Part shown: one piece after another, positions 38,527-64,000 of the stretch | Layout: the number at the start of each line of letters is the position of its first letter | Position numbering within the stretch: position 1 is the first letter of the stretch | From: Thermoguttaceae bacterium | GTDB lineage: Bacteria > Planctomycetota > Planctomycetia > Pirellulales > Thermoguttaceae | DNA: 64,000 nucleotides | Assembly (NCBI GenBank): GCA_045599605.1 | Contig: JAZRWE010000033.1 | Coordinates: 85,687-149,686 of the forward strand | Direction: 5' to 3' | Made by a program: the position numbers and the translations under genes | Notes under the pieces: generated by a model | Seen by the model: only the letters and a program-made list of their open reading frames with translations | The model's database searches: none | Told to the model about the DNA's origin: nothing

Positions 38527-38559
38527 ATCTAGCGTCGTCGCGTGTTGAGCGCGACTAGG

Positions 38560-38609: not shown

Positions 38610-38633
38610 AGCTCGTTTTACTTCGACGCTTTA

Positions 38634-40754: not shown

Positions 40755-40803
40755 AATAAAAAAGCCGGAAGACCTGTGAAGATCTTCCGGCGTATTTTAT
40801 TTA
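40755..40803. terminator. bidirectional rho-independent terminator (GCCGGAAGA...TCTTCCGGC flanked by AATAAAAAA and TATTTTATTT)
   Basis: A 9-bp stem spans 40764-40791. It lies 55 bp downstream of the minus-strand poly-Asn protein gene. Confidence 0.55.
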
Positions 40804-40845
40804 CGATAGTCGAACGCTAAGCGTTTATCTATCGAGCGTTGGAAC

Positions 40846-46013: not shown

Positions 46014-46271
46014 GATCTAGCGCCTGGTCTTATGAGAGCGCGGCAAACGTTTTCGAGCGTTTGCCGTGTTTTTTTTATTTTCGTTTTGACGCCGCGTCCG
46101 GATCGCTTGAAAGCCAAGTTCCTTTTTGTAAAATATTGACGCGAGTTTGGACCGGTTAAGAAACTGACGAAACTTAGTCCTCCTTCATGATCAGAAAGCA
46201 ATACATTTTTTAGAACGATCGTAAGTATTCGGAGCAACGATCTTGCGCCGACCGGTCGTTCCGCCGTTCCT

Positions 46272-47117: not shown

Positions 47118-47247
47118 CCCAACCCCTTAAAAAAAAGATACTGTTAGTTATAATATAGGGACGCTCTGTCGCGAGTACGCGCGCGTTAGCGAGGCGACGG
47201 AGAACGCTGTACGTTAAAAGAATCACTCAGGGTGGAGGAAAGCCCAA

Positions 47248-49011: not shown

Positions 49012-49102
49012 CGCAACATATTCTCGTATAAGATTTTTCCGCGCGGACGCGCCTTGCGTCCGCGTTCCATATATAGCATAAAGCCAATAAAAAACGAATA
49101 AA

Positions 49103-51727
49103 ATGTTTACGACTAACGAAATTCGTGAAATGTATTTGACGTTCTTCGAATCGAAGGGCTGCGTTCGCCGACCTAGCGACGTGTTGGTTCCGTATTGGGA
49201 TCCTTCCGTCTTGTTCACGCCGGCGGGTATGAACCAGTTCAAGGACCACTTCCTTGGGCGTTGCAAATTGGATTTCACGCGCGCGACCACTTGCCAAAAG
49301 TGCTTGCGTACGGGCGACATCGACAACGTCGGTCGCACGGCGTTCCACCACACGTTCTTCGAAATGCTCGGTAACTTCAGTTTTGGCGACTACTTCAAGC
49401 GCGAAGCTATCCACTGGGCTTGGGAATTCCTGACGAGCAAGCAATGGCTCGGCATCGACCCCGCGATGTTGTCCGCGACCGTCTATAAAGACGACCACGA
49501 AGCCGCGAAGATCTGGCTTGAAGAGATCAAGCTGCCCGCCGAAAAGCTCCAATACCTTGACGAAGACGAAAACTTCTGGCCTTCTTCCGCCCCGAGCCAA
49601 GGTCCCGACGGCGTTTGCGGTCCGTGTTCCGAGATCTATCACAAGACCCCGCAAGGCGAAGTCGAGATCTGGAACCTCGTTTTCACGCAATTCAATCGCG
49701 TTGGCAACCCGCCTAACAACCTCCGCCCGCTCCCGAGCAAGAACATCGACACCGGTATGGGCTTGGAACGCGTCACCTCCGTTCTCCAAGGCGTTGAAAC
49801 GAACTTCCATATCGATTCTCTCCGTCCGCTCGTCGAAGCCGCCGCAGAGATCTGCTCGCAAAAATACGACGACGTCGATCTTACGAACGAAAACGGCCGT
49901 CGTCTGCGCCGTATCGCCGACCATGTCCGCGCTTGCACGTTCGCGATCCACGAAAACGTCTATCCGGGTCCGAAAGAAGAGAAGTACGTCATCCGTCGTT
50001 TGCTTCGTCGCGCGGTCCTCGACGGCGTCCAAATGGGCATGAAGAAGCCGTTCCTGCACCAACTCGTCCCGGTCGTCGCCGACCTCATGAAGGTCCCGTA
50101 TCCGGAACTTGGCGAAACCATCGAACGCGTTCAAGGCGTTATCTCCGCTGAAGAAGAACGCTTCATGAGCAGCATCGACGGCGGTCTTCGTCGTCTGGAC
50201 CACGTCTTCAAGACGATGGAAGAAGAAAAGCGCGCGACCGTCGCCGGCGCCGATGCTTTCGAAATGTATCAAACGTACGGTTTCCCGCCGGAATTGTTTG
50301 AAACGCTTGCCGGCGAACGCAACTACGGGTTCGACTGGGACGGTTTCGGCAAAGAGATGGAACGCCACGGCGAACTCTCCGGTCTGACCGAAAAGAACTT
50401 GCTCTTCAAACGTGACCCGTTGGAAGGCATTAAGAAGACGACGAATCCGCCGGAATTCCTTGGTTACGCGACCACCGAAACGACCGACGCTTCCGTCCTC
50501 GCTATCCTTGACGGCGAAACGCTCGTCGACTCCATCGAAGCCGACGCCGCTAAGAAGATCCGCATCGTCTTGAACAAGACCCCGTTCTATGGCGAAAAGG
50601 GCGGTCAAGTTGGCGATTCCGGCGTTATCACCGCCGGCAACGCGGTCTTCAACGTCGAATCCGCGCAATACGACGGCGAATTCATCGTCCACGTCGGCAC
50701 GCTCGTCGAAGGCACGCTCAGCGTCGGCTCCAACGCCGTCGCTAAGGTCGATTCCGCTCGTCGCGCGGCTATTTCTCGCGCGCACACCGCGACGCACTTG
50801 CTGCACTGCGCGTTGCACAAGCTTCTTGGCGAACACGCGAACCAACAAGGTTCGAAGGTCGACGCCGATATCTTGCGTTTCGACTTCACGCACCACAAGG
50901 GCTTGGATCGCGAAACGTTGATCCAACTTGAAGCGGACGTCAACGCGATGATCTTGGAATCCTTCCCGGTCTGCTGCGAAGAGATGCCGAAAGAAGAAGC
51001 GTGCAAGCTCGGCGCGATGATGTTGTTCGGCGAAAAGTATCCCGACGTCGTTCGCGTCGTCAAGATGGGTCCGTCCCTCGAATTCTGCGGCGGCACGCAC
51101 CTTAAGTGCGTCTCGCAAGTCGGTTTCTGCAAGATCGTCGCTGAAGAAAGCGTTAGCGCGGGCACGCGTCGTATCACTGCGTTGACCGGTCTTGAAGCGC
51201 TGAAGAAGATCCAAGCGGCGGACGAAGTCGAAACGGCTTTGGCCGGCGTTTTGCGCGTTCCGGCCGCCGATATCGTCTCTCGCGTCGAAAAGCTCGCCGC
51301 GGAAAACAAGAAGCTCCGCAAGGATCTTGAAGCCGCTTCTAAGAAAGAAGCCGTCGACGTCGACGCTCTTATCGCGAAGGCTGAAGAAGTCGCCGGCGCT
51401 AAGTTTGTCGCGTTCACTTGCAACGACGTCGACGCCAACGCGTTGCGCGAAGCGATCGACCAGATCCGTCGCAAGACTGAAAACGCCGCGATCTTCATCG
51501 CTAATATCGACACGAAGGCCGGTAAGGTCGCTCTCATGACCGCCGCGACTCGCAACCTCGTTGAAAAGAAATTCAGCGCGGTCGAATGGGTCAAGGCTGT
51601 CGCGTCCCTCGTCAAGGGCGGCGGCGGTGGTCGTCCCGATATGGCGCAAGCCGGCGGTAAAGACCCCGCGGGCGTTCCCGCCGCGATCGAAGCCGCGAAG
51701 AAGTTCCTCGCCGAAAAACTCGCGTGA
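49103..51727 (+). CDS. alaS: alanine--tRNA ligase
   Basis: The N-terminus (IREMYLTFFESKGCVRRPSDVLVPYWDPSVLFTPAGMNQFKDHFLG) is canonical AlaRS. An editing-domain HxxxH/CxxxH zinc site is present (HTATHLLHCAL...C), and the length is 874 aa. Confidence 0.95.
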   Translation: MFTTNEIREMYLTFFESKGCVRRPSDVLVPYWDPSVLFTPAGMNQFKDHFLGRCKLDFTRATTCQKCLRTGDIDNVGRTAFHHTFFEMLGNFSFGDYFKREAIHWAWEFLTSKQWLGIDPAMLSATVYKDDHEAAKIWLEEIKLPAEKLQYLDEDENFWPSSAPSQGPDGVCGPCSEIYHKTPQGEVEIWNLVFTQFNRVGNPPNNLRPLPSKNIDTGMGLERVTSVLQGVETNFHIDSLRPLVEAAAEICSQKYDDVDLTNENGRRLRRIADHVRACTFAIHENVYPGPKEEKYVIRRLLRRAVLDGVQMGMKKPFLHQLVPVVADLMKVPYPELGETIERVQGVISAEEERFMSSIDGGLRRLDHVFKTMEEEKRATVAGADAFEMYQTYGFPPELFETLAGERNYGFDWDGFGKEMERHGELSGLTEKNLLFKRDPLEGIKKTTNPPEFLGYATTETTDASVLAILDGETLVDSIEADAAKKIRIVLNKTPFYGEKGGQVGDSGVITAGNAVFNVESAQYDGEFIVHVGTLVEGTLSVGSNAVAKVDSARRAAISRAHTATHLLHCALHKLLGEHANQQGSKVDADILRFDFTHHKGLDRETLIQLEADVNAMILESFPVCCEEMPKEEACKLGAMMLFGEKYPDVVRVVKMGPSLEFCGGTHLKCVSQVGFCKIVAEESVSAGTRRITALTGLEALKKIQAADEVETALAGVLRVPAADIVSRVEKLAAENKKLRKDLEAASKKEAVDVDALIAKAEEVAGAKFVAFTCNDVDANALREAIDQIRRKTENAAIFIANIDTKAGKVALMTAATRNLVEKKFSAVEWVKAVASLVKGGGGGRPDMAQAGGKDPAGVPAAIEAAKKFLAEKLA

Positions 51728-51764
51728 GTTGCAAGATAACTTCTTGTTGAAGTGAAATAAAATA

Positions 51765-51804
51765 AGGACGTTTGGATCTTTGGTTCAAACGTCCTTTTTG
51801 TTTG
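51765..51804 (+). terminator. rho-independent terminator after alaS (AGGACGTTTG...CAAACGTCCT, then TTTTGTTTGG), plausibly bidirectional
   Basis: A 10-bp stem spans 51765-51795 and is followed by a T-run. Confidence 0.6.
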
Positions 51805-51904
51805 GTTAGGATATTGGCGCGGCTAGAAAAAAGTCGCGCCGTCGTTATCGACGAATCTTGATAGAAATTTCTTTCGCTTTTATCGTCTCGATACTAAAAG
51901 GGGA

Positions 51905-54900
51905 TCACGGTTCCGTTCGCGCGTTTCTGAAACCCGGTCTATCGGCTTCGGGGCGTTTGTCGGCGAGGGCTTTTCCTTTAAGTATAGCGTTGTACAGCGC
52001 TTGCCATTGCGCGTCGTCTTTTGACTCGAACACGAGCGCGGGCGAATCTTCCGGCGCGTTCTTATCGGTGGAGAGTCCGCGTCCGCCTGCGGCTTTGGCT
52101 AAGTGCGCGTTGAGTAGCGCGCTCTTTTCAGGTCGCGTGAGGTCGATCCAGCCGAAACGTCCTATCCAGTCGGTGTTCGGACCTTCAAAGACTTCGGAAC
52201 GATCGCGATTTTCGCCCGTAAGACGTTTATGGCAGTCCGCGCATTTCTCGGCGTAGATCGGCGCGAGTTCTTTACTGAACCAGTCTGCGAGTCCGGCTTT
52301 ATCGAGCGGCGCCCAGCGGTCGCGTCTGCCCGCGGATAGCGGCCGCGCGTTGGCGTAGGTCCCTTGATAGATCGCGTTAGAATCGAGCCAGAAATAGACG
52401 CGGCGCAGCGAGACGTCGTCGACTTCTTGACCGCAATGCTCTTTCGTGAAATATTCAGGCAAACGACTAGCGAGCGCGCCCGTCGTGTACGGCATATTGA
52501 CCGCGGAAGTCGTCCATAACAGCCAATAGAATTGCACTAACGGCTTGCCGAGCGCTTGTTGGTCTTCCGGCATTTCCCCGGTAAGCATATCCGCTTGACG
52601 ATACGAACGACTCTTTAATAACAACGATTCGTAACTTGCGCTGAAATAACGAGTAGCGTCGCCGCTGAGATCGTATCCGCCCGTCGGGTCGGCGCCGTCG
52701 TGACAGGAAACGCAGTAGCGATCCAGTACCGGTTGCATCAGCGACGGATAATCGACTACGCCGGCGTCGAGCGAGAGATTGCCGTCGTGCGATTGGCGGT
52801 ATTCGTACGCGTCGTAGATAAAATCAGGCAATACGGGCATATCGGGACTACGCAGCGCGGCGGTCGGGCGACGGCTCTCGTCTTGCGCGGTCGCGGGTAT
52901 CGAGTCGCGATCTTCGTGACAGCCGACGCAGCCGATCGATTCTCCGGGCATGAATTGCGCGGCGCTCGTCATGCGCTGTATCTCGCGTCCTTCCGCGTCT
53001 AGCGCTTGGAAATAGATCTCGCGCAACGCCGGGACGTAGAAATTCGCGCTGCCGTCTTCGTCGACCGGGACTTCGCCCCAGCAACGCTTGGCGTAATACG
53101 TCGCCACGCCCATCGACGGCGATTGGTCGAACGAACGGTCATACAGTTCTTCCGATTTGCGTATCTGTTCCATAATGCGCAGCTTCTTGACTTCGCCGCG
53201 CTTCACGATCGGTTCGAGCCCTTGATAGACGTCCGCGAGAACGACCTGTCCGACGGGGTCGCCTTCAAGCAGATCCATGCGTTCGGGGATCCCCCATTCG
53301 CCGACGGCAACGGCGGCGCCGTCGATCTCGCATTGCGATTCGTGCGAGACGTTATAGTATTCCGCGAGCTTGGAGTACTCGTTGCACGCTTCTACGCCGT
53401 CAGTCTTGCGCAAGCCGCTAAATACTTCCGCGGGTTTGAGTTCCGGACGGAGTTTCGCTTTCATGTCTTTCTCGACGATACGCGTAGGCAGCACGGGCGG
53501 TCGCGGCGTCTCTTCCACCGCGATCGGGCAAAACGCGTCGAATTCCGGGTCTTCCCAGAGGAGTCGCTTCTCGCCGTCGCAGTCGAGCAACCAGATGCGA
53601 TAGCGTTGCGTTTCCGCGTCGTTTTCGTCGATACGCGTCGCGCCGCCGTAAGCGCATAACGCGCGTTCCTCGTCTAGCGGGAACGGGTCGCGATACGCGT
53701 AGTCTCGCGAGACGTCCACGACCGTCGGGAACTCTTTCGTCCAGTACTTGTAGCCGCCCTTATCCGCGCCGGCTTCCACCCCCATCGCGCGGTCTACGAC
53801 GCCGATCGCGCCGTGAGGATAGCCATGGTGAGGCGTGAAGGTCGCAAGGACTCGCGACGACGGCGCGCCGGGAATAGGACGCGCTTGTAGGATCGAACCG
53901 AAGTCGCGCAACGTGTTGCCGTAATAGAGTTGGTAGAGCGTTCCCTCGGGATTCTGCGTCCATAGCGATTGTCGGTACGTCAGGTCGCGGTCGACGTATT
54001 CCCAACGCGTGAAGATAACGCGTCCGTCCGCAAGGACTTGCGGGTTAAAATCGGAGAGCGTGTTCATACTGACGCATTGGATATCGTCGCCGTTCTTGTC
54101 CATGCGGAAGAGGTTAGAGGCGGGACCGGGTTGACAAACGGTGCGTCCGAAACGTCGCGAGGAGACGAAGACGATACCGCCGTCGGGTAATTCCGCGGGC
54201 GAAACGTCGAAGAACGGGCCGTTGGTCAGTTGTCTTAACCCTTTACCGTCGACGCCGACGCTCCAGATGTTCCAGTAGGAGTTGTTCTTAGGGCGGTACG
54301 AGAAGTAGACGGTCTTCGCGTCGTACGACAAGTTCATATCGTATATCGAGCCGTCGGGGTCTTCAAATATCGTCTTGACTTCCGCGGTCGGGTCGGCGGG
54401 ATCGACCATGCGTATCGCGCAACCCGGCGTTTGCGGCGTCGCTTGCCAGAAGTCGTTGCCAACGGAATTAGGACGTCCGCGCATCGCTCTCGCGACGTAG
54501 ATGAACGGCGGTAAGTCGTCCGTAGCTAGCGTTTCCGGATAATCGCTCGACTCTTCTTCCGGCTTAACTAAGTCGACGGCGGTGAAGGGCGCGTCGACGA
54601 AACCGTCGGTCGTGGCGTCAAGACGAACGCGGAGATCGCGATACTCGACGTCGTTTTGCCAAGAACGGAACGTGAATGTGCCCGCGCGTAATGGATCGGT
54701 CGCTTTCAGTTCCGCCTCGTGGTATTCGCCTTTATAAACGCCGTCGAGATAGAACGCGAATCCTGTTTCGTCGAACTCGACGCGTAACGTGAAGTATTCG
54801 CCGACGGGCACGTCGTACGGCACGCGCGTTATCGCGGTATAGTTTTGGCGATGCGCGCCGACATTGACGTGTTTCTCGGCGGGATTGAATCCCAACTCGT

Positions 54901-55267
54901 AGCCGTTGAACGCGTCGGCGCCGATCCCGGAACCGCTTATCTTGAAACATATCCCGGAGTACCCCGGCGTCGCGGCGTTGAAACGCAGGTCTACTTCGAT
55001 CGCGCCGCGCGTCGCGTTAGCCCATTCCTGCGCGTCGTAAGTCAGTCGCGAGCCGGAATCGCCCTTGCATAAGAGAACGCCGTCGTTAAGCGTCCAAGAA
55101 CCGCCGTACGCCTCGAAACCTTCCAACGGTCTTGCGGGGCCGCTCGGCGTAAACGGCATAGCGAGTATGCGTTCAAGTCGAGTAGATTCCGCGGCTTGTA
55201 ACATAGCGCTCGGCGAAGCGACGAAGACGAGAACGAGTAATATATAGCGTAGGCGTTTCAAGTTCAT
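51905..55267 (-). CDS. large secreted multidomain protein: N-terminal LamG/DUF1080-like domain, central TolB-like beta-propeller region, and a C-terminal region with three CxxCH heme-binding motifs (Planctomycete cytochrome-c-domain-like)
   Basis: A signal peptide is present (ILLVLVFVASPSAMLQAAE). The N-terminal domain ends with the DUF1080-like FTFRSWQNDVEYRDLRV. The CxxCH motifs are CVGCHED, CVSCHDG and CADCHKR. The length is 1120 aa. Confidence 0.75.
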   Translation of the reverse strand: MNLKRLRYILLVLVFVASPSAMLQAAESTRLERILAMPFTPSGPARPLEGFEAYGGSWTLNDGVLLCKGDSGSRLTYDAQEWANATRGAIEVDLRFNAATPGYSGICFKISGSGIGADAFNGYELGFNPAEKHVNVGAHRQNYTAITRVPYDVPVGEYFTLRVEFDETGFAFYLDGVYKGEYHEAELKATDPLRAGTFTFRSWQNDVEYRDLRVRLDATTDGFVDAPFTAVDLVKPEEESSDYPETLATDDLPPFIYVARAMRGRPNSVGNDFWQATPQTPGCAIRMVDPADPTAEVKTIFEDPDGSIYDMNLSYDAKTVYFSYRPKNNSYWNIWSVGVDGKGLRQLTNGPFFDVSPAELPDGGIVFVSSRRFGRTVCQPGPASNLFRMDKNGDDIQCVSMNTLSDFNPQVLADGRVIFTRWEYVDRDLTYRQSLWTQNPEGTLYQLYYGNTLRDFGSILQARPIPGAPSSRVLATFTPHHGYPHGAIGVVDRAMGVEAGADKGGYKYWTKEFPTVVDVSRDYAYRDPFPLDEERALCAYGGATRIDENDAETQRYRIWLLDCDGEKRLLWEDPEFDAFCPIAVEETPRPPVLPTRIVEKDMKAKLRPELKPAEVFSGLRKTDGVEACNEYSKLAEYYNVSHESQCEIDGAAVAVGEWGIPERMDLLEGDPVGQVVLADVYQGLEPIVKRGEVKKLRIMEQIRKSEELYDRSFDQSPSMGVATYYAKRCWGEVPVDEDGSANFYVPALREIYFQALDAEGREIQRMTSAAQFMPGESIGCVGCHEDRDSIPATAQDESRRPTAALRSPDMPVLPDFIYDAYEYRQSHDGNLSLDAGVVDYPSLMQPVLDRYCVSCHDGADPTGGYDLSGDATRYFSASYESLLLKSRSYRQADMLTGEMPEDQQALGKPLVQFYWLLWTTSAVNMPYTTGALASRLPEYFTKEHCGQEVDDVSLRRVYFWLDSNAIYQGTYANARPLSAGRRDRWAPLDKAGLADWFSKELAPIYAEKCADCHKRLTGENRDRSEVFEGPNTDWIGRFGWIDLTRPEKSALLNAHLAKAAGGRGLSTDKNAPEDSPALVFESKDDAQWQALYNAILKGKALADKRPEADRPGFRNARTEP

Positions 55268-55523: not shown

Positions 55524-56795
55524 GTGAAACGGTCGACTTCTATATGTGTTCTAACGCTATTGTTGACTATTGTCGTTTCCGGTTGCGCGCCCAAACAAGA
55601 CGCGGACGATAAGAAGAAAGAAGAAGGTCCGGTTCCCGCGCACGTCGTTCCGGTCGTGACTCGCAACGTCGTCGAGTACGCCGAGTTGACCGGTCGCACG
55701 GCCGCCGTCGAATCTGTCGAAGTACGCGCTCAAGTCTCCGGATATCTTGAATCGATCGACTTCAAGCCCGGCTCGATGGTGCGTAAAGGCGACGTGTTGT
55801 TCAAGTTAGATTCGCGCGTTTATAAGGCGGTATTCGATCAACGCCAAAGCGACGTCGACGCGAAAGAGGCGGAATTGAAACAACTTGCGTCCGACCTCAA
55901 ACGCCAAGAGACGCTCGATACGCGCAACGCGACCTCGAAACAACAAGTGGAACAAGCGCAGACGAATTACAACACCTGTCTCGCGCAACTTGAAGCCGCT
56001 CGCGCTAATCTCGAACGCGCTCGTATCGACCTCGATTACGCGACGATCGTTTCTCCTATCGACGGCGAAGTTAGCCGCGAACAGATCACCGTCGGGAACC
56101 TGGTCTCCTCCGGTACGACGCTGCTGACGAGAGTCGTAGCGGTCGACCCCGTGTATATCTTCTTTGACGTCGACGAACGCTCGTTACTACGGTTCCGCGA
56201 AGAATCTAAAGAGCTTGCCGCCGATGAAACGCTCACCGTGAAATTCGCGATCGGCGACGGCGCGTTTGACCGCGAAGCCGCGATCGATTTCTCGGAACCG
56301 CGTCTCAATGAAACGACCGGCACGCTCGAATTTCGCGCCGTCGTCGACAATAAGCCTAATGAAAAAGGGCGTCGCGACCTCATTCCCGGCTTGCGTCTGC
56401 GCGTTTTGTTCCCGGTCTCGCCGGAGTATGAGGCGACGGTCGTGCCCGAGGAAGCGATCGTGACCGACCAGAACGTCAAGCGCGTCTGGGTCTTGGGGCC
56501 CGACAACGGCGTTATCTCTACCCCGATCGAATTAGGACCGTTGCAAGACGACAATATGCGCGTCGTCAAGATGGGCTTGAAGCCGGGCGATAAAGTCATT
56601 GTCGACAACTTGTTGAAGATCCGTCCTAACTCTACGATCGACCCGACGGAAGCGCCCGCCGCGTCTACCACGCGCGTCGTTCGCGAAGACGGCACGATCG
56701 TTAATCCCGACGGCACGATAGAATACGACGGTATTTATGAATGGTCGCTAGAACGCGGCAAGGAGAAAGATCCTTCCGATTCCGACGACGCTTGA
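55524..56795 (+). CDS. RND efflux membrane fusion protein (periplasmic adaptor, HlyD/AcrA family), lipoprotein
   Basis: A GTG start has an SD (AAAGGA). The lipobox is VVSGC. Lipoyl/beta-barrel adaptor motifs are present (VEVRAQVSGYLESIDFKPGSMVRKGDVLFKLD) along with a coiled-coil hairpin. Confidence 0.8.
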   Translation: MKRSTSICVLTLLLTIVVSGCAPKQDADDKKKEEGPVPAHVVPVVTRNVVEYAELTGRTAAVESVEVRAQVSGYLESIDFKPGSMVRKGDVLFKLDSRVYKAVFDQRQSDVDAKEAELKQLASDLKRQETLDTRNATSKQQVEQAQTNYNTCLAQLEAARANLERARIDLDYATIVSPIDGEVSREQITVGNLVSSGTTLLTRVVAVDPVYIFFDVDERSLLRFREESKELAADETLTVKFAIGDGAFDREAAIDFSEPRLNETTGTLEFRAVVDNKPNEKGRRDLIPGLRLRVLFPVSPEYEATVVPEEAIVTDQNVKRVWVLGPDNGVISTPIELGPLQDDNMRVVKMGLKPGDKVIVDNLLKIRPNSTIDPTEAPAASTTRVVREDGTIVNPDGTIEYDGIYEWSLERGKEKDPSDSDDA

Positions 56796-56854: not shown

Positions 56855-59800
56855 TTGGCACGTTTTTTTATCGATAGACCGATTTTTGCGAGCGTGCTCT
56901 CGATCTTGATCGTCTTGATCGGGGCGCTCGCGTATTTTAAACTCCCGCTAGCGCAGTATCCTAACGTGGCGCCGCCGACGATCAACGTCAGCGCGTCGTA
57001 CACCGGCGCGAACGCTCGCGCAGTCGCGGACTCTGTTACGACGCTTGTTGAAGAGCAGATCAACGGCGTCGAAGGGATGCTCTATATGGAGTCTAACAGC
57101 TCCAACGACGGGCGTATGAGCATCAATATCACGTTCGAGACGGGTACAAATCTCGACGACGCGTTAGTTCTTGTGCAGAACCGCGTTTCACTTGCGACGG
57201 CGAAGTTGCCCGAGCAGGTCAAGAAGAGCGGCGTCACCGTGCGTAAACGTTCCCCGACGAACTTGATGATGATCAACTTCATCTCGCCGGATAAGAAATT
57301 CAATCAGGTTTACCTCAGCAACTACGTCTCTTTACGCGTCAGAGACGCGTTGTCGCGCGTCGAAGGCGTCGGCGATATCTCCATCTTTGGCGAAAAAGCG
57401 TATAGTATGCGCGTCTGGCTCGACCCCGCCGCTATTGCAGCAAGACATATGAACGCGTCGCAAGTCGTCGCGGCGATCAAAGAGCAGAACAAGCAGGTCT
57501 CGGCGGGCACGCTCGGCGATCCTCCGATCGACAAACCGATCGTCTTTCAGATCCCGACGAACGTTCGCGGACGTCTTACCGAACCTGAGGATTTCGAGCA
57601 GATCGTCGTCAAGACGGACGACGCGGGGCGCGTCACGCTTCTTAAAGACGTCGCGCGCGTCGAGTTGGCGGCGTTGAGCACGACGATCACCTCCGCGTTT
57701 AACGGTCTTCCCACCGTCACGCTCTCCATCTACCAGTTGCCCGACGCGAACGCCGTCGCGACCGCTAAGCGCGTGCGTAAGACGCTTGCGGAACTCTCGA
57801 AGAGCTTCCCCGACGGACTCGTTTACGACGTTTCGTTTGACACGACCCCTTATGTCGAAGAATCTATCCGCGAAGTGAAGAAGACGTTTATCGAAGCGAT
57901 CGTTCTCGTCGCGATCGTCGTTATTCTGTTTTTACAGAGCTGGCGCGCCGCGGTCATTCCGTTGCTTGCCGTTCCGATCTCTTTGATCGGGACCTGCGCG
58001 GCGATGTACGCGTTAGGGTTCAGTTTGAACAACTTATCGCTCTTCGGACTTGTGCTCGCGATCGGTATCGTCGTCGACGACGCGATCGTCGTAGTTGAAA
58101 ACGTCGAACGGCATATGGCTAAGGGGCTTTCTCCGAAAGACGCGGCGTATGTCGCGATGAAAGAAGTATCCGGCGCGTTGGTGGCGATCGCGCTCGTCTT
58201 GGCGTCGGTATTTGTGCCCGCGTCTTGCGTTCCCGGTATCGTCGGGATGTTCTATCGCGAATTCGCGTTGACTATCGCCGTTTCGACGCTCATCTCGTGC
58301 TTCGTCTCGTTGACGCTTAGCCCCGCGTTGTGCGCCGTCTTCTTGCTTCCGAAAGGCGCGAGACGCGATCCTATCACGTTCCTCGTCGACGTTTGCTTCG
58401 GTTGGCTGTTCAAATTATTCAACGGCGTTTTCAATATCACGACGGCGGTCTATGTCGGGATCGTGCGCTGCTTATTGCGCGTCTCGTTGTTGGTATTGAT
58501 CGTTTACGGCGGCTTGATCTACCTTACCGCGCAAGAATTTACGAACACGCGCACGGGCTTCATACCCCAACAGGATAAAGGCATCATGCGCGGGGCCGTG
58601 CAGCTTCCCGACTCCGCGTCGTTGTTCCGCACGCGCGAGATGATGCGCAAGGCGTATCGCTTGGCGTTGGAAACCGAGGGCGTTAAGAACGTCATTGGAT
58701 TTGAGGGACGCAGTAATCTCGTCGACAGCGCCGCGTCTAACGTCGGCTCGCTGATGTTCATTCTCGCACCGTTTGAAGAACGCGCGAAGAGCGGACGCAC
58801 CGACGTCGTCATTCAAGAAGAATTGTTGAAGAAGTTTTCGCAACTTCAAGAAGGAAAAGCGTTTGTTTTCCGCTCTCCGCCGGTCGACGGCGTCGGACTT
58901 GGCGGGTTCAAAGTCCAGCTCCAAGACAAGAGCGGCTCCAAAGACCTTTCCAATTTGCAAGCGGTCGGCGATATGATCGTGGACGAGGGAACGCAGGTCC
59001 CCGAGATCTTCTCGCTGCAAAACGCGTTTCGCGGGGCAACTCCGCAGCTCTTTATCGACGTCGATCGTAAGAAGCTCAAGTCGATGAACGTCTCGCTCGA
59101 CGACGTATTCGACACGTTAAATATCTATCTTGGCTCCGATTACGTCAACGATATCACGTTCCTTGAACGCAGCTTCCGCGTCACCGCGCAAGCCGATTGG
59201 AGTCGCCGTTCTTGCGCCGACGATATCTATCGTCTCTATGTCCAGAACAAGAAGGGCGAGTCGGTACCGCTAGGCTCGTTATTGACGGCTCGCGATATCA
59301 CCGGCCCTATGGCGATCAAGCGATTTAATATGTTCCCGTCGTCGGCGATCAGCGGTCAGACCGCTCCCGGCTATTCTTCCGGCGAAGCGATGAAGGCGAT
59401 GGAACGATTGCTAGACGAGAAGTTGCCCGACAGCATGGGGTACGAATGGACGGAATTAGCGCTCCTGGAAAAGCGCGCGGGCAACACCGCGATCTACGTC
59501 TTCGCGCTCGCCGTCGTCCTCGTTTTCCTGCTTCTCGCGGCGTTGTACGAGAGTTGGTCGTTGCCTTTCGCGATCGTCTTAGTCGTGCCAATGTGCTTGT
59601 TATGCTCGCTCGTTGGCGTGAATATCGCGCAATCCGATATGAACGTGTTTACCCAGATCGGGTTCTTCGTCTTGATCGGACTGGCGTGTAAGAACGCGAT
59701 CCTTATCGTGGAATTCGCAAAAGACTTGCAAGAACAAGAAGATATGTCGAGCTTCGACGCGACGCTGCGCGCTTGTCGACTGCGCTTGCGTCCTATCGTG

Positions 59801-60001
59801 ATGACGTCGCTCGCTTTCATCTTGGGCGTCGCGCCCTTGATGTACGGTATGGGCGCGGGACACGAGATGCGCTTTGCGCTCGGCGTCGCCGTATTCTCCG
59901 GGATGATCGGCGTTACTGTTTTCGGCGTCTTCTTGACCCCGGTGTTCTACTACGTCATCAGAAAGTTTTCGTGGAAGAAACGCCGCGAAAGCGTGAAATG
60001 A
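56855..60001 (+). CDS. RND family efflux transporter (HAE1/AcrB-like), TTG start
   Basis: The N-terminus is (M)ARFFIDRPIFASVLSILIVLIGALAYFKLPLAQYPNVAPPTI, the canonical AcrB start. It has 12 TM helices and two large periplasmic loops over 1048 aa. An SD (AAAGGG) lies 8 nt upstream of the TTG. Confidence 0.9.
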   Translation: MARFFIDRPIFASVLSILIVLIGALAYFKLPLAQYPNVAPPTINVSASYTGANARAVADSVTTLVEEQINGVEGMLYMESNSSNDGRMSINITFETGTNLDDALVLVQNRVSLATAKLPEQVKKSGVTVRKRSPTNLMMINFISPDKKFNQVYLSNYVSLRVRDALSRVEGVGDISIFGEKAYSMRVWLDPAAIAARHMNASQVVAAIKEQNKQVSAGTLGDPPIDKPIVFQIPTNVRGRLTEPEDFEQIVVKTDDAGRVTLLKDVARVELAALSTTITSAFNGLPTVTLSIYQLPDANAVATAKRVRKTLAELSKSFPDGLVYDVSFDTTPYVEESIREVKKTFIEAIVLVAIVVILFLQSWRAAVIPLLAVPISLIGTCAAMYALGFSLNNLSLFGLVLAIGIVVDDAIVVVENVERHMAKGLSPKDAAYVAMKEVSGALVAIALVLASVFVPASCVPGIVGMFYREFALTIAVSTLISCFVSLTLSPALCAVFLLPKGARRDPITFLVDVCFGWLFKLFNGVFNITTAVYVGIVRCLLRVSLLVLIVYGGLIYLTAQEFTNTRTGFIPQQDKGIMRGAVQLPDSASLFRTREMMRKAYRLALETEGVKNVIGFEGRSNLVDSAASNVGSLMFILAPFEERAKSGRTDVVIQEELLKKFSQLQEGKAFVFRSPPVDGVGLGGFKVQLQDKSGSKDLSNLQAVGDMIVDEGTQVPEIFSLQNAFRGATPQLFIDVDRKKLKSMNVSLDDVFDTLNIYLGSDYVNDITFLERSFRVTAQADWSRRSCADDIYRLYVQNKKGESVPLGSLLTARDITGPMAIKRFNMFPSSAISGQTAPGYSSGEAMKAMERLLDEKLPDSMGYEWTELALLEKRAGNTAIYVFALAVVLVFLLLAALYESWSLPFAIVLVVPMCLLCSLVGVNIAQSDMNVFTQIGFFVLIGLACKNAILIVEFAKDLQEQEDMSSFDATLRACRLRLRPIVMTSLAFILGVAPLMYGMGAGHEMRFALGVAVFSGMIGVTVFGVFLTPVFYYVIRKFSWKKRRESVK

Positions 60002-60089: not shown

Positions 60090-60518
60090 GCAAGACAAGA
60101 CGAAATGAAGAACGTTGGCTCGCCGAGGGTTCCGCATAACGTGTCGAGTTCTCGTGAAGAGTAGGGCGCGACGAAGAAACGCCGCCGTCTATGCGTCTAA
60201 GAACGTTGGTAAAGAAACGCGTAATTCAGCCGCAAGAAACAAAAAATCGGCGCGGTATCAAATGAAACGCACGCCGATTTTCAGAATACTATATATTGCT
60301 TATCTGGACTCTCTCGTAACAAAGAAGACGCGGAAGCGTCGTCTTTGTTCGATATTACGCCAAAATGGGTAAACACCCTAATAAGACGCTAATTCTCAAA
60401 GAATCAGCGTAACGATCAACGTATCGTTCGACGCTCGCATAAAGCGAGGATTGAGGCGCGACAGGACTAGGTCCTATCGCACGTGTGAAAGCGAAGGCGC
60501 GAGCTAACGCGCAACGAC

Positions 60519-60695
60519 TCATTCTTCGTCGGCGTCGTCTTGGTCGATATCACGACCGGGGTCGTATTCAGGACGAAGGAGAGCGGACTTGTCTTTATCA
60601 AGTTCTTGGTAGTCGTTGACGTTTTCTTTGGCTTCGAAAGACAAAACGGTGCAGACGGGCGCGGCGTACTTTTCGCGGTTGGCAAATTTCATCAT
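60519..60695 (-). CDS. small acidic protein (58 aa) of unknown function; candidate substrate peptide of the adjacent RRE/kinase/nucleotidyltransferase/peptidase operon
   Basis: The ORF encodes MMKFANREKYAAPVCTVLSFEAKENVNDYQELDKDKSALLRPEYDPGRDIDQDDADEE. An SD (AAAGGA) lies 6 nt upstream of the first ATG (60695). Upstream of it is a 275-bp AT-rich region, and a hairpin lies downstream at 60494-60510. Confidence 0.4.
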   Translation of the reverse strand: MMKFANREKYAAPVCTVLSFEAKENVNDYQELDKDKSALLRPEYDPGRDIDQDDADEE

Positions 60696-60991
60696 AGTGT
60701 TCCTTTTTATAAGCAATATTGTCGACGTAACAGCAAAAGCTGATCCCCACGTCGGCTGTTAAGGAGAAAGTCTCCTGTAATAGCCAAGCCTATTTCTCAA
60801 GACTATACGCCTTTGTATTGTATTATCTTTTTGGATAATGGCAAGGGCGCAGAAAGACTTTTTATAGAGTTTTGTTTTTTCTTTTTTTAGAATACAGTAA
60901 ACAGTTTACGATTATGTGATTTCTGTAATATATTGATTTTGGGTAATTTGTTAATGTGTTGATAAAATACGGCGTCTAGGAAATGTTTTTG

Positions 60992-61534
60992 TTATCTTTT
61001 AACTCTCGGAATAGGCGCTTTTTTACCGAATACGCTTCTTTTTATAGCCCCGAGTTTACGCCGAAAGAACTTCAGAGTTCGTTTTATCATCCGCCGCGTT
61101 TCCCTTTGCGCGTATAGTATTCGCGAATAGAGTTTGTAAGCGCGTGAACGTTCGCAATCTATGCGTAGCTTACCGCGTTCGATCGCGTAGACCTTGGCGT
61201 AGATATCTTCTTTATTTACCGGCGGTTCCGGATTCACGAACGCGTCGCCGCGAAAGATAGCGTCGCCGTTCTTTAATACGGCGACGACGCGATGGAGGTT
61301 GTATTTGCCGTTGGCGGCGCGATAGAGCGCGATATCGTATTTCTCGATCTTGTCGCATAAGCCAAGATAGACGACGTCTTTACGGTCGCGCAACGTCGGC
61401 TTCATACTTGTTCCGCCGGGACAAAACGCGACGCGCTTCTCCTTATCGCCGTCGAGCGTTTCTAGCAATAGCTTGAAATACTCTTCTGCGGGAAGCGTTA
61501 GATTCTCGCGTTCTTCGGCGTTATGGGCGTTCAT
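60992..61534 (-). CDS. soluble S26/S24-family signal-peptidase-like serine protease (SMxPTL catalytic-Ser motif; Ser/His-type)
   Basis: The segment VAFCPGGTSMKPTLRDRKDVVYL matches the signal peptidase I box B (G-x-S-M-x-P-T-L). Downstream, YNLHRVVAVLKNGDAIFRGD resembles box D (KRVIGLPGD), with His in place of the catalytic Lys as in ER/archaeal/SipW-type enzymes. No TM segment is present. A 4-bp ATGA overlap links it to the upstream PqqD-like gene. Confidence 0.6.
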   Translation of the reverse strand: MNAHNAEERENLTLPAEEYFKLLLETLDGDKEKRVAFCPGGTSMKPTLRDRKDVVYLGLCDKIEKYDIALYRAANGKYNLHRVVAVLKNGDAIFRGDAFVNPEPPVNKEDIYAKVYAIERGKLRIDCERSRAYKLYSRILYAQRETRRMIKRTLKFFRRKLGAIKRSVFGKKAPIPRVKR

Positions 61535-61797
61535 TCGCTCAGCGCTCCATTTTCACGCAGCTGAGTCAGGAACGTTTCGACGTCGCGCGCGGCGGTATCG
61601 TTATCGATCTCAAAGCGTTCGACGACGGCTTCGACGATAGCTTCCGCCGTCGTTTCTTCTTGCAGTTTCTCCGCGATGAACGCGCCGACTTTATTGAGCG
61701 TCAGCATTCCGTTGAATTTGATCATCTTCTTACCAAACGGCACGAGGACGGCGGAATCGACGACGCGGCGAAGTACGAAATCTGAACTGAGTTTCAC
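61531..61797 (-). CDS. PqqD-family protein (RiPP precursor recognition element, lasso B1-like)
   Basis: The 88-aa protein reads VLRRVVDSAVLVPFGKKMIKFNGMLTLNKVGAFIAEKL...AEAIVEAVVERFEID...AARDVETFLTQLRENGAL, which is the PqqD/RRE pattern (beta-strands followed by a winged helix-turn-helix). A GTG start has an SD. Confidence 0.75.
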   Translation of the reverse strand: MKLSSDFVLRRVVDSAVLVPFGKKMIKFNGMLTLNKVGAFIAEKLQEETTAEAIVEAVVERFEIDNDTAARDVETFLTQLRENGALSE

Positions 61798-61832: not shown

Positions 61833-62546
61833 TTATTGGACGTTAGGAAAACGCATAGCGCGATAAGACGCTTGCGCGGCGTTTGGCGTGTTTGTGCAGC
61901 CGACGCGGTAGACGGGCACGGTCGTCAAGAGGTCGACGATCAGATCGAGCGCCTGTTCTAAAACGCGATGCTTCAACGGCGACATCGATTGCTTCATGAA
62001 TAGCCCGATCGCTTCGTCGGCGCCGATACGCGCGACGCTATCGACTTTGGCGCGTTCCAGGAAGCCTATGCCTTGTAACGGTACTTGTTTATTGACGTTG
62101 ATGAACGTCGAACCAGCCCACGGCGTACCGCAAGCGCGCCAGACGCCGTCGAATTTCCTGAGCGCCGGAGCGTCGTCGTTCAAAATATACGCGCCGTTTG
62201 CGCCGAAGTTTTGTAGCCAGTACCGCGTGTGCGTCGATTTGCCTACCCCGCTGTCCGCGGAGAAAAGATACGCGCGATCCTCGTAAACTACCGACGAGGA
62301 ATGGAGCACAAGCGTTCCGAAGCGCGTCGACTCGCGGTGGAATAGGTAACGCATGAACGCGTATTCCGCAAAATCCGGTTCGTTGCCGCTATACTTCAAC
62401 GCGTAGGCGATATCGTCGTCGGTCACCTTGAAGACGACGTCGGGCGCGAGACTGTCGTCGACTCGATACGGTTCCGCCTGTTTCAGCGATAATTCGTATC
62501 GCGCGTCGAACGCGACGGTTATGCCCGCCACTTGGTAATTGCGCAT
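61833..62546 (-). CDS. HPr kinase/phosphorylase C-terminal-domain-like P-loop serine kinase (lasso-peptide-kinase-like)
   Basis: The segment LHSSSVVYEDRAYLFSADSGVGKSTHTRYWLQNFGANGAYILNDDAP matches the HprK core (LHG..V..G.GVL..G.SG.GKSE....L...G..LV.DD). An ATGA start/stop overlap links it to the upstream gene. Confidence 0.75.
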   Translation of the reverse strand: MRNYQVAGITVAFDARYELSLKQAEPYRVDDSLAPDVVFKVTDDDIAYALKYSGNEPDFAEYAFMRYLFHRESTRFGTLVLHSSSVVYEDRAYLFSADSGVGKSTHTRYWLQNFGANGAYILNDDAPALRKFDGVWRACGTPWAGSTFINVNKQVPLQGIGFLERAKVDSVARIGADEAIGLFMKQSMSPLKHRVLEQALDLIVDLLTTVPVYRVGCTNTPNAAQASYRAMRFPNVQ

Positions 62547-63808
62547 CAGTCGTCTTCCTTCCAGTCTTGGGCGTTGAATCGGCTAGGATCTAACCCCGCG
62601 CGACGTTGGAACGCCGCCGCCGCGGAGACTTGCTTCTCGTTCGCGCTTAGGAACGTGCGGAGATTGCGATAGAAGTTCTTGCGCGTCAGGCGCGTATGCC
62701 AGAACTTAAAGAACAACTTCGTCGCGACCCAGGGCTTTTTCCACGTCGGGACGCCGCGCAGACGATGCACGACCTCGTAATTGACGCGTTGCGGGAAGAT
62801 CGTTAATAGATGCCGTATGCGCGCGAAACGTTTTTTCTTCCCGTCCGTCGCGGAACTCGCGAGATACGAGGAGTAACAGCAGACGGCGCCTTCTTCGTCG
62901 GAAGTCGCGTTCGTCTCGTGACGGAAGAACTGGTAGAGCGTCATCTCCGTCAATACCGCGTCGAGCGGCTTGTGTCCAAACCAAGCGTCGACAAGACGTT
63001 CGATATTTTTTTCGAATTCAAGCGTTCCCGCGGAGTCGAGATCCGCGTCGAGCTTCTTGCGATCGAGAGTCGCGCCGCGAGCGCGGAGATAGAGCGCGAC
63101 GTCGAGATAGTCGCGCAACGCCGTTTGGCTCTGGATCCAGTGCTTGAGTAGGTGTTCCAGCATATAGCGATAGAAGTCTTCGTCGGTGAAGCGGTATTCC
63201 GTCGACTCATACGCGACGAGCCGTTTCCACGAGACGCTTCTCCCGCGCTCGAACGCCCCGGAAGCGTTGAAGAGCTTGTAGTGCTGTTCGACCATGAATC
63301 GTCCGGCTTTGAGGAAGACGTCGTGATGCTCGTCTCCTTTGACGTATTCGTAGCCTTGGCGTTCAAGCGCTTCTCGCGCTTTATCAAAATCCTCCGGCCG
63401 AACTAACACGTCGTAGTCGGACATCGTCCTCAGATACGCTTCCGGATAAAGGTCTCTCATCAAGAACCCTTTGAGCGGCATATAGCAGACTCCGGCGTCG
63501 CGAAACGCTTGATTCAGCGCGTTGAATTCTTGTGTTTGCAGCGCTTCGTCTTCGACGGCGGCGTTGAGCGTGGAACCGCATTTCGCCAAGATCGCCGGGG
63601 TCGACGCGTTAGGCGCCGACAGCGAGACATACGCAAGCAGCGGCGCGACTTTTTGACGTTTCGCAAGTTGCGTCAACGCCTCTACGTCGAGTTCGTCGGG
63701 GGGATCGGGCGCCGCCTCGTTATTGAAAAACGCCGCCAACACGTCCAAGAGGTATCGCTCTTCGACGCGTAACGACGCGGAGCCGTATTGTTCGGTGACT
63801 TGCGGCAT
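62546..63808 (-). CDS. uncharacterised nucleotidyltransferase family protein (PF14907-like), first gene of the operon
   Basis: The 420-aa protein contains CYMPLKGFLMRDLYPEAYLRTMSDYDVLVRPEDFDKAREALERQGYEY, the GS/hG[SG]...D.D signature region of this nucleotidyltransferase family. A perfect SD (AAGGAG) lies 7 nt before the ATG, with an intergenic region of at least 190 bp upstream. Confidence 0.65.
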   Translation of the reverse strand: MPQVTEQYGSASLRVEERYLLDVLAAFFNNEAAPDPPDELDVEALTQLAKRQKVAPLLAYVSLSAPNASTPAILAKCGSTLNAAVEDEALQTQEFNALNQAFRDAGVCYMPLKGFLMRDLYPEAYLRTMSDYDVLVRPEDFDKAREALERQGYEYVKGDEHHDVFLKAGRFMVEQHYKLFNASGAFERGRSVSWKRLVAYESTEYRFTDEDFYRYMLEHLLKHWIQSQTALRDYLDVALYLRARGATLDRKKLDADLDSAGTLEFEKNIERLVDAWFGHKPLDAVLTEMTLYQFFRHETNATSDEEGAVCCYSSYLASSATDGKKKRFARIRHLLTIFPQRVNYEVVHRLRGVPTWKKPWVATKLFFKFWHTRLTRKNFYRNLRTFLSANEKQVSAAAAFQRRAGLDPSRFNAQDWKEDD

Positions 63809-64000
63809 AGGATCTCCTTAGGTTAGTCTTGCGCTACTCGGTAATTTTAACAATACGCATAAGAAAGTCAACGCGCAACCGGCCCCGAAACGTTGGCGTT
63901 TGGACCGCGATTTACGGCGTCGCGACTTCGGCTAATCGTTGACGTCGAAACGCTTCTTCGCTATAATCAACGCGATAACGCGCGGGTAGGGCTTGCGCGG

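Follow-up and report, generated by a model that had tools for sequence, protein, structure and literature searches.

Background

That the signal-peptidase fold can be used for a cytoplasmic leader peptidase guided by an RRE is known from one Paenibacillus cluster, through the work of Popov et al. on the 'linear polyphosphorylated peptide' (LPP) of Paenibacillus alginolyticus (Nat Commun, May 2026; PMC13381572). In this pathway LppS, a SipW-like peptidase with a Ser/His/Asp active site, requires the RRE LppB to cut the leader of the precursor LppA; the substitutions S29A, H68A and D93A in LppS abolish cleavage and deletion of lppS blocks processing in vivo (PMC13381572). The LPP clusters also encode an HprK-like kinase, an uncharacterised NTP transferase (LppN) and an ABC exporter. 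LppA follows the consensus YxxPxVLxHQxIxFETxxS, in which the conserved leader extends to FET and a variable core follows, and the Ser at core position 3 is polyphosphorylated, with the kinase LppK accepting neither Thr nor Tyr at that position (PMC13381572). LPPs were described as restricted to the Bacillota, while a supplementary table of the same study lists RRE-linked SpI homologues outside this phylum, including the Planctomycetota (PMC13381572). The nearest named relatives of the peptidase discussed here are RRE-linked SpI homologues that the study assigns to its SSN clusters 4 and 9 (Dehalobacter, Anaerocolumna, Ruminococcus). They are listed only, with precursor, kinase and products marked ND (PMC13381572), and public records of Clostridia MAGs name them 'S24/S26 family peptidase'.

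At the level of the enzyme, the comparable group is MEROPS S26B, which includes SEC11, archaeal SPase I and Bacillus SipW. The present peptidase shares with this group the Ser of the SM-P motif, a His-Arg pair replacing Lys-Arg, a GD(N) box with an acidic residue six positions on, and the beta-barrel fold. At the level of the pathway, lasso peptide clusters with B1/B2 proteins (paeninodin-type) share with the present locus a discrete PqqD-type RRE, a [Y/W]xxP leader motif and the NTP transferase family, and probably also the HprK-like kinase family and the handing over of the precursor to a leader peptidase. The locus described below carries the design of the Paenibacillus cluster in a gut planctomycete of the Thermoguttaceae (Planctomycetota), whereas the host of LppS belongs to the Bacillota.

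The peptidase and its probable role

The window, that is the whole stretch of DNA analysed, comprises 64,000 nucleotides. The gene under study (60992..61534, minus strand) starts with ATG and encodes an anchorless, LppS-like serine peptidase of 180 aa, of the S26B-like (SipW/SEC11) type. A sequence-only reading of the window had reported this open reading frame with the motifs GTSMKPTL and HRVVAVLKNGD, and both are found in its translation, at residues 41-48 and 81-91, respectively. The gene is real, as relatives at 49-63% identity keep the same gene order on other metagenomic contigs and the family profile is a large one.

The peptidase is soluble and of the archaeal/ER type (S26B-like), and within a small RiPP operon it most likely removes the leader with the help of the RRE. 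Its conserved catalytic residues, the match of the family profile to LppS, the residues of the adjacent RRE, the gene set, a conserved YxxP precursor and the absence of a membrane span together lead to this reading. Comparison of the family profile with LppS by hhalign gave a probability of 98.8% (E 1.1e-16, 115 columns), with S29, H68, D87 and D93 of LppS mapping onto S43, H81, D97 and E103 of the peptidase. BLASTP of the window peptidase against LppS returned no alignment, so that the link between the two rests on profiles and gene context. Like the present enzyme, LppS is small (151 aa), anchorless and SipW-like, carries its Ser and His motifs in the same places and is encoded right after a discrete RRE. 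The two differ in sequence (about 17% identity on the profile alignment), in having Asp93 in LppS but Glu103 in the window peptidase, and in a basic tail that takes up residues 129-180, with 20 Lys or Arg among its 52 residues, and is present in the window peptidase and not in LppS.

The sequence-only reading had proposed a leader peptidase embedded in a PqqD/kinase operon, a role that gains support from the LppS profile match and from neighbours that correspond to the LPP gene set. Its further suggestion of a protease of a novel kind is not supported, since an RRE-dependent, SpI/SipW-like leader peptidase with a Ser/His/Asp triad has already been published (PMC13381572). The locus is a divergent planctomycete version of the known LPP-type design and not a new kind of enzyme.

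Operon organisation

The genes follow one another on the minus strand in the order NTP transferase, HprK/ScmC-like kinase, PqqD-type RRE, peptidase and a 58-aa precursor, which in the lettering of the LPP genes is N-K-B-S-A, as against A-K-B-S-D-N in the LPP cluster. The PF14907-type NTP transferase is common to both, and the putative HprK-like kinase and putative YxxP precursor of the window have counterparts in the LPP cluster. A promoter-like site upstream of the first gene (63844..63871, minus strand) agrees with a sigma-70-type consensus at 10 of 12 positions and has a TG extension, although planctomycete promoters may differ from this consensus.

The first gene (62546..63808, minus strand) encodes an LppN-like nucleotidyltransferase of 420 aa with a full-length match to PF14907 (NTP_transf_5, E 6.4e-47), and it holds the same position in three related loci (L001, L002 and L006). 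Further upstream, locus L002 has a divergent gene next to the NTP transferase and L001 has unrelated secreted-protein paralogues. The end of the nucleotidyltransferase gene overlaps by 1 bp the start of a gene for a putative LppK-like kinase of 237 aa (61833..62546, minus strand). The assignment of the latter as an HprK-like/ScmC-like P-loop kinase draws on matches to TIGR04249 (ScmC, E 3.4e-7) and TIGR04352 (HprK_rel_A, E 0.026), both below the curated cut-offs, and on a P-loop with the Walker A motif DSGVGKST. Homologues of the kinase bear a precomputed PF27840 (ScmC) match, and a search of its sequence against the PDB gave only chance matches to nanobodies.

The third gene (61531..61797, minus strand) encodes a discrete, LppB-like RRE of 88 aa belonging to the PqqD family (PF05402, E 2.3e-18). 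Its best NCBIfam matches are lasso PqqD chaperones, and among PDB sequences it matches LppB (9x8z) as well as TbiB1 and TfuB1, two RREs of lasso systems. Identity with LppB is 36% over 47 aa, and the leader-binding residues N33, V35, D70 and F74 of LppB are conserved as N35, V37, D72 and F76 in an ungapped alignment. The TGA of the RRE gene and the ATG of the peptidase gene share 4 bp (ATGA), which, with the kinase and PF14907 genes preceding them, agrees with the operon context given in the sequence-only reading. Every independent locus in which the upstream side is visible has the two genes linked, and in each of them except L012 the RRE gene immediately precedes that of the peptidase; in L012 it lies 1.3 kb upstream. 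The linkage is seen in planctomycete-like as well as in Clostridia contigs.

The LPP cluster includes the exporter LppD, whereas no gene for an ABC (MsbA-like) exporter lies in or next to the operon of the window, nor is there one at the syntenic locus L001. The ScmC-PqqD-peptidase cassette recurs in Clostridia contigs. There an ABC exporter gene comes after it, and the cassette is often part of a capsule locus, neither of which applies to the window.

A lasso peptide cluster was also considered for the locus. The lasso leader peptidase B2 is a transglutaminase-like Cys protease whereas the window encodes a serine peptidase, and a lasso cyclase (C) gene is found neither in nor beside the operon; this assignment was rejected for want of a cyclase and a B2 gene.

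The putative precursor and the modification chemistry

The peptidase gene is followed by an AT-rich intergenic spacer (60696..60991, minus strand; GC about 0.44-0.46 against 0.55-0.60 in the flanks). It contains two promoter-like sites on the minus strand (60954..60927 and 60844..60817), identified by consensus match, from which planctomycete promoters may differ, and a ribosome-binding site, AAAGGA, 5 nt upstream of the precursor ATG, with AAAGGG and AAAGGAG as its equivalents in loci L001 and L003. A separate promoter for the precursor gene is proposed on the basis of these sites.

The putative precursor (60519..60695, minus strand) is encoded by a small ORF conserved in position and has 58 aa, consisting of MMKFANREKYAAPVCTVLSFEAKENVN followed by an acidic and variable C-terminal part. 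Just after its stop codon lies a terminator-like hairpin (60497..60512, minus strand) with a 5-bp all-GC stem and a T-rich tract, a kind of site that occurs here at the frequency expected from shuffled sequence. Loci L001 and L003 have counterparts of 49 aa and 55 aa, respectively, at the corresponding place, and the three peptides share RE(K/E)Y(A/V)APxCxV(L/V)SFExxENVN before they diverge. In the shared part there are 11-14 differences at third codon positions against 2-6 at positions 1 and 2, a bias that indicates a coding pattern of substitution. The YAAP of the window precursor, running from Y10 to P13, fits the YxxP RRE-binding motif of LPP and lasso leaders, and is followed by a hydrophobic stretch and then by FE.

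The precursor departs from LppA in several respects. The leader is shorter or altered: if FE is aligned, the spacing from the Pro to FE is 3 residues shorter than in the LppA consensus. The HQ motif is missing, and position -1, a T in LppA, is occupied by A or P. Core position 3 has no Ser in the window, L001 or L003, being Asn in the gapped register or D, G or R in the ungapped one. Owing to the altered spacing, the -1 residue and the missing Ser3, the cleavage site is not predictable, and both FEA|KEN and EN|VN would fit the proposed role. Among the Clostridia loci L008, L010 and L012, a pattern search for a YxxP precursor ORF gave a convincing candidate in L012 alone.

These features bear on the alternative that the peptidase is an active leader peptidase in a pathway chemically unlike that of LPP, in which another residue is phosphorylated or the peptide is nucleotidylated or glycosylated without polyphosphate. 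Such a pathway would accommodate the Asn found at +3 after FE[A/P] in all three planctomycete-clade precursors (or D, G or R, ungapped), given that LppK took neither Thr nor Tyr at position 3 (PMC13381572), and it would also suit a core that is acidic where that of LppA is Gly/Asn/Lys-rich, a kinase that fits ScmC better than HprK_rel_A and an operon with no exporter gene. Against it, the operon does not otherwise differ from LPP clusters in its set of genes, other Ser residues are present in each of the three cores, and the L012 precursor has a Ser aligned with S3, from which it appears that the wider family probably uses LPP chemistry. A chemistry different from that of the LPPs is possible but unlikely.

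Fold and active site

The sequence-only reading had made its assignment depend on the S24/S26 fold, and this is the fold adopted by the AlphaFold2 model of the peptidase (alignment of 63 sequences, pLDDT 91.5, replacing an earlier model from 5 sequences with pLDDT 71.7). The model consists of an N-terminal helix (residues 16-27), a beta-barrel (34-126) and a basic C-terminal helix (131-169).

The same reading had placed a His at the position of the general base, and the family profile agrees. In it LHRV of the peptidase lines up with the segment IVHRV in human SEC11A and the segment AKR/VKR in bacterial SPases, so that His81 falls on the His that is catalytic in SEC11A and on the catalytic Lys of the bacterial enzymes. 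Asp97 falls on the Asp of the SEC11A GDN box, and Glu103 aligns with LppS Asp93 and with Asp122 of SEC11A, the second Asp of its DD pair. From these alignments Ser43, His81 and Glu103 are proposed as catalytic residues, together with Asp97 in the GD box; their codons, checked by hand on the sequence, are 61406-61408 (AGT), 61292-61294 (CAT), 61226-61228 (GAA) and 61244-61246 (GAC), respectively. A Ser/His dyad had been suggested previously, and Ser43 and His81 fit that description, but a triad, with Glu103 as its probable third member, describes the centre better. An alignment of 56 relatives shows no variation at G41, S43, M44, P46, D53, H81, R82, G96 and D97, and at least 90% conservation at E103; in the set of 63 sequences E103 is invariant, and the catalytic Ser and His are invariant in both sets.

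The conservation argues against the view that the protein is a non-catalytic adaptor of the S26 fold, comparable to Streptococcus pyogenes SipA, which would keep the RRE-precursor complex in place for the kinase or transferase and leave the cleavage to some other protease. Despite the great diversity of the family, there is little or no variation at Ser43, His81, Arg82, Gly96, Asp97 and Glu103, as expected of an active enzyme and not of a pseudo-enzyme, and the equivalent residues of LppS are essential for cleavage (PMC13381572). An adaptor role is therefore very unlikely.

Still less probable is a secretory type I signal peptidase of the SipW/SEC11 kind, housekeeping or specialised, that cuts the N-terminal signal peptides of exported proteins at the membrane. 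The fold and the Ser/His motifs are the same as in SEC11A and SipW, and family members are publicly named 'S24/S26 family peptidase' or 'signal peptidase I'. However, the window peptidase has no transmembrane segment, as the sequence-only reading had also stated: its highest 19-residue Kyte-Doolittle mean is 0.68 as compared to about 1.6 for a membrane span, an amphipathic helix and the basic tail replace the anchor that in S26B signal peptidases puts the active site on the trans side of the membrane, and a candidate span occurs in just 1 of the 56 relatives. The gene is, moreover, translationally coupled to that of a cytoplasmic RRE, with the pair adjacent in nearly every locus examined, and the characterised relative LppS cuts a leader peptide and not a signal peptide (PMC13381572). 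With respect to S26B, the window peptidase thus differs in lacking the N-terminal membrane anchor and probably, by analogy with LppS, in depending on an RRE and not acting on signal peptides.

A regulatory, self-cleaving S24 domain of the LexA/UmuD/cI kind, to which LexA, lambda cI and UmuD' among the top structural matches and the Pfam Peptidase_S24 matches of 21 of the 56 relatives would point, is scarcely credible for a protein without a DNA-binding (HTH) domain or an N-terminal cleavage-site region, with His and not Lys at the general-base position, with an RRE and a precursor peptide constantly linked to it, and with relatives that are matched in larger number and with better E-values by archaeal-type SPase models than by LexA/UmuD models. 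Proteins of the LexA/UmuD type use a Ser/Lys dyad, cut themselves at an internal Ala-Gly or Cys-Gly site and usually carry a DNA-binding domain.

Family distribution

The archaeal-type SPase model TIGR02228 matches 46 of the 56 relatives and SipW matches 24. The window peptidase itself does not reach the curated cut-offs of TIGR02228 and NF046067: NCBIfam signal-peptidase models match it weakly (E 0.003, far below cut-off), with 12.6 bits for SipW (NF046067; cut-off 190) and 17.5 bits for TIGR02227 (cut-off 47), while TIGR02228 gives no match at E <= 1. Neither a Pfam scan, S24 included, nor a phmmer search against PDB sequences returned a match. A SodX-like maturation protease was rejected as a candidate, as 9 of the 56 relatives match SodX weakly and sodN is not found nearby.

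At E <= 1e-3, a profile built from five sequences finds 5192 cluster representatives (50% identity); among the 150 listed, almost every one has 130-190 aa. The named members of the subfamily are almost all from Clostridia. The peptidase shows 43% identity over 87 aa (E 2e-17) with Ruminococcus SCH01704.1, and the RRE shows 35% identity over its full length with the RRE listed with that protein. No relative was found with the five-sequence alignment in the contigs of the GTDB species representatives, indicating that the clade is rare or absent there. Given the size of the subfamily and its linkage to an RRE, it may serve as a handle for genome mining of an under-explored RiPP class.

Proposed mechanism

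By homology with the LppS-LppB-LppA system, the Y-A-A-P segment in the leader of the precursor would join the RRE as an additional beta-strand. As in LppS, whose N-terminal helix contacts the RRE-leader sheet, helix 16-27 of the peptidase would dock on this sheet, with Glu18 and Leu22 corresponding to Glu6 and Ile10 of LppS, and the SFE-x-x-ENVN stretch would enter the active site. There Ser43 (GTSMKP) may attack the scissile bond, with His81 (LHRV) acting as the general base and oriented by Glu103, and Asp97, in the GD box, is likely to have a structural role. Modification by the kinase and the nucleotidyltransferase probably takes place either ahead of cleavage or at about the same time, as in the LPP and paeninodin pathways. 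The activity of the peptidase, the cleavage site, the order of the steps and the chemistry of modification are all drawn from this homology. The Ser/His/Glu arrangement and the anchorless architecture amount to small variations on the S26B peptidases.

Implications for the product

A more far-reaching, and rather unlikely, reading is that the product of the operon is chemically distinct from the LPPs, being linear and strongly acidic and having no Ser3 site, with the basic tail of the peptidase holding the core and export taking place without a dedicated ABC pump. Were this so, the residue targeted by the ScmC/HprK-like enzyme and the PF14907 transferase, or the group that they attach, would be a different one, the 52-residue poly-basic tail would help to hold an acidic or phosphorylated core, and export could proceed, for example, through the adjacent RND system of the diderm host. 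The group of more than 5000 representatives of 'S24/S26 family peptidase' in Clostridia and planctomycetes would then mark a RiPP class broader than the LPPs of Bacilli and partly different from them. The acidic cores of the planctomycete precursors and their lack of Ser3 suggest a chemistry that varies within the class. The RND efflux genes are a convergent pair downstream of the operon, with a possible connection to it.

Peptidase gene and operon organisation

The open reading frame at 60992..61534 on the minus strand begins with ATG and encodes a protein of 180 residues, in which the motifs GTSMKPTL (residues 41-48) and HRVVAVLKNGD (residues 81-91) are found exactly as given in the sequence-only reading; the codons for Ser43, His81, Asp97 and Glu103 were confirmed in the raw sequence. 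The reported absence of a membrane anchor was also borne out, the maximum Kyte-Doolittle mean over 19 residues being 0.68, with no hydrophobic stretch. Of the C-terminal 52 residues, 20 are Lys/Arg and one is acidic; a single long amphipathic helix is predicted for this tail.

The gene lies, as had been proposed, in a PqqD/kinase operon on the minus strand, in which a PF14907 nucleotidyltransferase (62546..63808), a P-loop ScmC/HprK-like protein (61833..62546) and a PqqD-family RiPP recognition element (RRE; 61531..61797) precede the peptidase; the PqqD stop and the peptidase start overlap as ATGA. GC contents of the operon genes (0.52-0.58) are near those of the flanks, the AT-rich part being limited to the spacer and the precursor region.

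Clostridia contigs carry a cassette of ScmC, PqqD, peptidase and ABC exporter, sometimes with PF14907 and often within capsule loci, whereas no exporter gene was found in or beside the operon in the window or in the syntenic metagenomic locus L001. An RND efflux pair convergent to the operon, comprising a membrane-fusion protein (55524..56795, plus strand) and a 1048-residue ACR_tran pump (56855..60001, plus strand), is conserved in its arrangement in L001 and might stand in for the missing ABC exporter. At 4844..5584 of another metagenomic contig, L096, whose cassette is PqqD-peptidase-ABC-PF14907, the kinase is reduced to a 99-residue C-terminal remnant ORF (5259..5558); AgrB and a histidine kinase are also present on this contig.

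Peptidase family, fold and active site

A word-indexed search recovered only four close relatives of the peptidase (49-99% identity), all with the same gene order. An exhaustive HMMER search seeded with the profile of the close relatives identified 5192 cluster representatives with E-values no higher than 1e-3; for 1136 of these the E-value was 1e-10 or lower. Among the 150 matches listed, nearly all are 130-190 residues long. Family members that carry a name in public sources are called 'S24/S26 family peptidase' and belong to MAGs of Clostridia or Oscillospiraceae. G41, S43, M44, P46, D53, H81, R82, G96 and D97 are invariant in 56 diverse family members; E103 is conserved in at least 90% of these and is invariant in a second set of 63.

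The window protein alone matched no model in a Pfam scan and gave weak matches to the signal-peptidase NCBIfam models. The family-level signal was clear: within the 56-member set, TIGR02228 (archaeal-type signal peptidase I) was matched by 46 members (best E 2e-11), the SipW model by 24, Pfam Peptidase_S24 by 21 and the bacterial signal peptidase model by 20. An AlphaFold2 model built from five sequences was mediocre (pLDDT 71.7); with 63 sequences the model improved to pLDDT 91.5 (pTM 0.80), and S24/S26 proteins make up all of its first ~29 Foldseek matches. In the family-profile alignment with human SEC11A, the Ser of the family SM-P motif aligns with that of GSMEP, LHRV with IVHRV, GD with GDN and the conserved Glu with the second Asp of the DD pair; the Lys of AKR/VKR in the bacterial signal peptidases aligns with the family His. 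The sequence-only reading had named a different fold, or a Lys at the general-base position, as grounds for its own rejection; an S24/S26 fold and a His were found, and the assignment therefore stands on both points. The proposed Ser/His chemistry is retained with one refinement, the acidic Glu103 being probably the third member of a catalytic triad with Ser43 and His81.

Relationship to the LppS leader peptidases

The core genes of the linear polyphosphorylated peptide (LPP) system, characterised in Paenibacillus alginolyticus, encode LppA (precursor, consensus YxxPxVLxHQxIxFETxxS), LppK (HprK-like kinase), LppB (discrete RRE), LppS (SpI-like peptidase), LppD (MsbA-like exporter) and LppN (NTP transferase) (Popov et al., Nat Commun 2026; PMC13381572). 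Deletion of lppS abolishes processing, LppS cleaves only together with LppB, its mutants S29A, H68A and D93A are inactive, and Ser3 of the core receives several phosphates from LppK (PMC13381572). An AlphaFold3 model with supporting mutagenesis docks the N-terminal helix of LppS on the LppB-leader sheet, and the LPPs were termed restricted to Bacillota (PMC13381572).

LppS, LppB and LppA sequences for comparison were taken from Supplementary Data 1 of that study. BLASTP produced no alignment between the window protein and LppS, whereas a match to LppS was obtained with the family profile (98.8% probability, E 1.1e-16); its 115 columns extend from the N-terminal helix through the barrel's end. 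LppS S29, H68, D87 and D93 correspond in this alignment to S43, H81, D97 and E103 of the window peptidase, and E6 and I10 of the RRE-contact helix to E18 and L22. Over 47 residues, LppB and the window RRE share 36% identity. In the crystal structure of LppB, the leader Tyr and Pro are held by N33, V35, D70 and F74, all retained in the window RRE (N35, V37, D72 and F76), whose PDB sequence matches comprise LppB along with the lasso RREs TbiB1 and TfuB1.

Further RRE-linked SpI homologues are tabulated in the supplement of the same paper, where they were left without further study: SSN clusters 4 (Dehalobacter, Anaerocolumna), 6 (Brocadia, Kuenenia), 7 (Acidobacteria), 8 (Bacteroidota fusions) and 9 (Ruminococcus) (PMC13381572). 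Cluster 9 is closest to the window peptidase (43% identity, E 2e-17), and the RRE listed with its Ruminococcus protein is 35% identical to the window RRE over the full length; the Brocadia protein is more distant (26% identity).

Given the LppS profile match and the RRE/operon context, the leader-peptidase role suggested earlier is judged right by homology, and the window protein is most likely an RRE-dependent leader peptidase; its activity, cleavage site and modification chemistry are what we infer from homology and context. The claim of a novel kind of protease has been overtaken by the LppS study (PMC13381572). The newness is modest and consists of the same design in Planctomycetota, a very large, untested peptidase subfamily that BLAST does not link to LppS, and a window clade with an acidic core and a long basic peptidase tail, without the exporter and the Ser3 acceptor.

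Putative precursor

A putative precursor ORF of 58 residues, MMKFANREKYAAPVCTVLSFEAKENVNDYQELDKDKSALLRPEYDPGRDIDQDDADEE, is located at 60519..60695 on the minus strand, ~300 bp downstream of the peptidase gene, and the spacer between them is AT-rich and contains promoter-like sites. Beyond the stop codon of the ORF there is a weak terminator-like hairpin. The ORFs at the same place in L001 (5493..5642) and in a further metagenomic locus, L003 (2773..2940), share RE(K/E)Y(A/V)APxCxV(L/V)SFExxENVN with it and then diverge. The shared part shows 11-14 differences at third codon positions against 2-6 at first or second positions, and each of the three ORFs is preceded by an AAAGG(A/G) ribosome-binding site. 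As judged from these sequences, the putative precursors show the usual pattern of conserved leader and variable core.

The YxxP motif bound by LppB and the lasso RREs is also present in the window leader. A gapped register against the LppA consensus places FE on FE, with candidate cleavage at FE[A/P]|xEN and a P-to-FE distance shorter by 3 residues, while the ungapped register keeps Tyr at -16 and Glu at -2, with candidate cleavage at EN|VN; Ser at core position 3 is absent in both. The likely precursor of the Clostridia relative L012 (MKKYEEPVVEVVIVEDVVSDDE...), in contrast, has Ser at this position in the gapped register. This candidate of the same class is a 36-residue ORF, MKKYEEPVVEVVIVEDVVSDDEIGGVSGGGGFIPIG, immediately 5' of the ScmC-like gene on the contig (5113..5223), its Ser being aligned with Ser3 of LppA. 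The LppA core is Gly/Asn/Lys-rich, whereas those of the window, L001 and L003 are strongly acidic. Towards the C-terminus, the window and L001 cores have another conserved block in common, RPEY(D/N)xGxD(I/V)(D/E)QDDx(D/I)E; that of L003, which is Pro/Asp/Asn-rich, bears no relation to these cores.

Host and neighbouring genes

The window was assigned to gut Thermoguttaceae through its alaS gene (49103..51727, plus strand; TIGR00344, E 8e-246). The nine proteins that match its AlaS best, at 81-83% identity, belong to Thermoguttaceae or other planctomycete MAGs, mostly from ruminant and human guts, and the host accordingly belongs to a gut lineage of planctomycetes. A mutY-like glycosylase (15812..17131, plus strand) is a further housekeeping gene. 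Long ORFs overlap on opposite strands at many places in the region 1..52000 (such as 6160..7491/6256..7575 and 17283..18638/17301..18644); the overlaps are mechanical ORF calls, expected from the GC-rich composition, and give no evidence of antisense genes.

A secreted-looking protein of 1120 residues with three CxxCH haem-binding motifs is encoded at 51905..55267 on the minus strand. For its syntenic counterpart in L001 (10994..14365; 1123 residues), the recorded matches are to DUF1080 (3keto-disac_hyd), to HZS_alpha and, faintly, to cytochrome c, an architecture common in planctomycetes. Upstream of the operon, L001 also encodes two paralogous proteins of ~250 residues (36..800 and 1490..2248), the equivalent position in the window falling past coordinate 64000. 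The paralogues share a C-terminal ...FASDDLF(D/L)EYFV; an upstream LEERQLL motif, typical of planctomycete secreted proteins, occurs in one of them.
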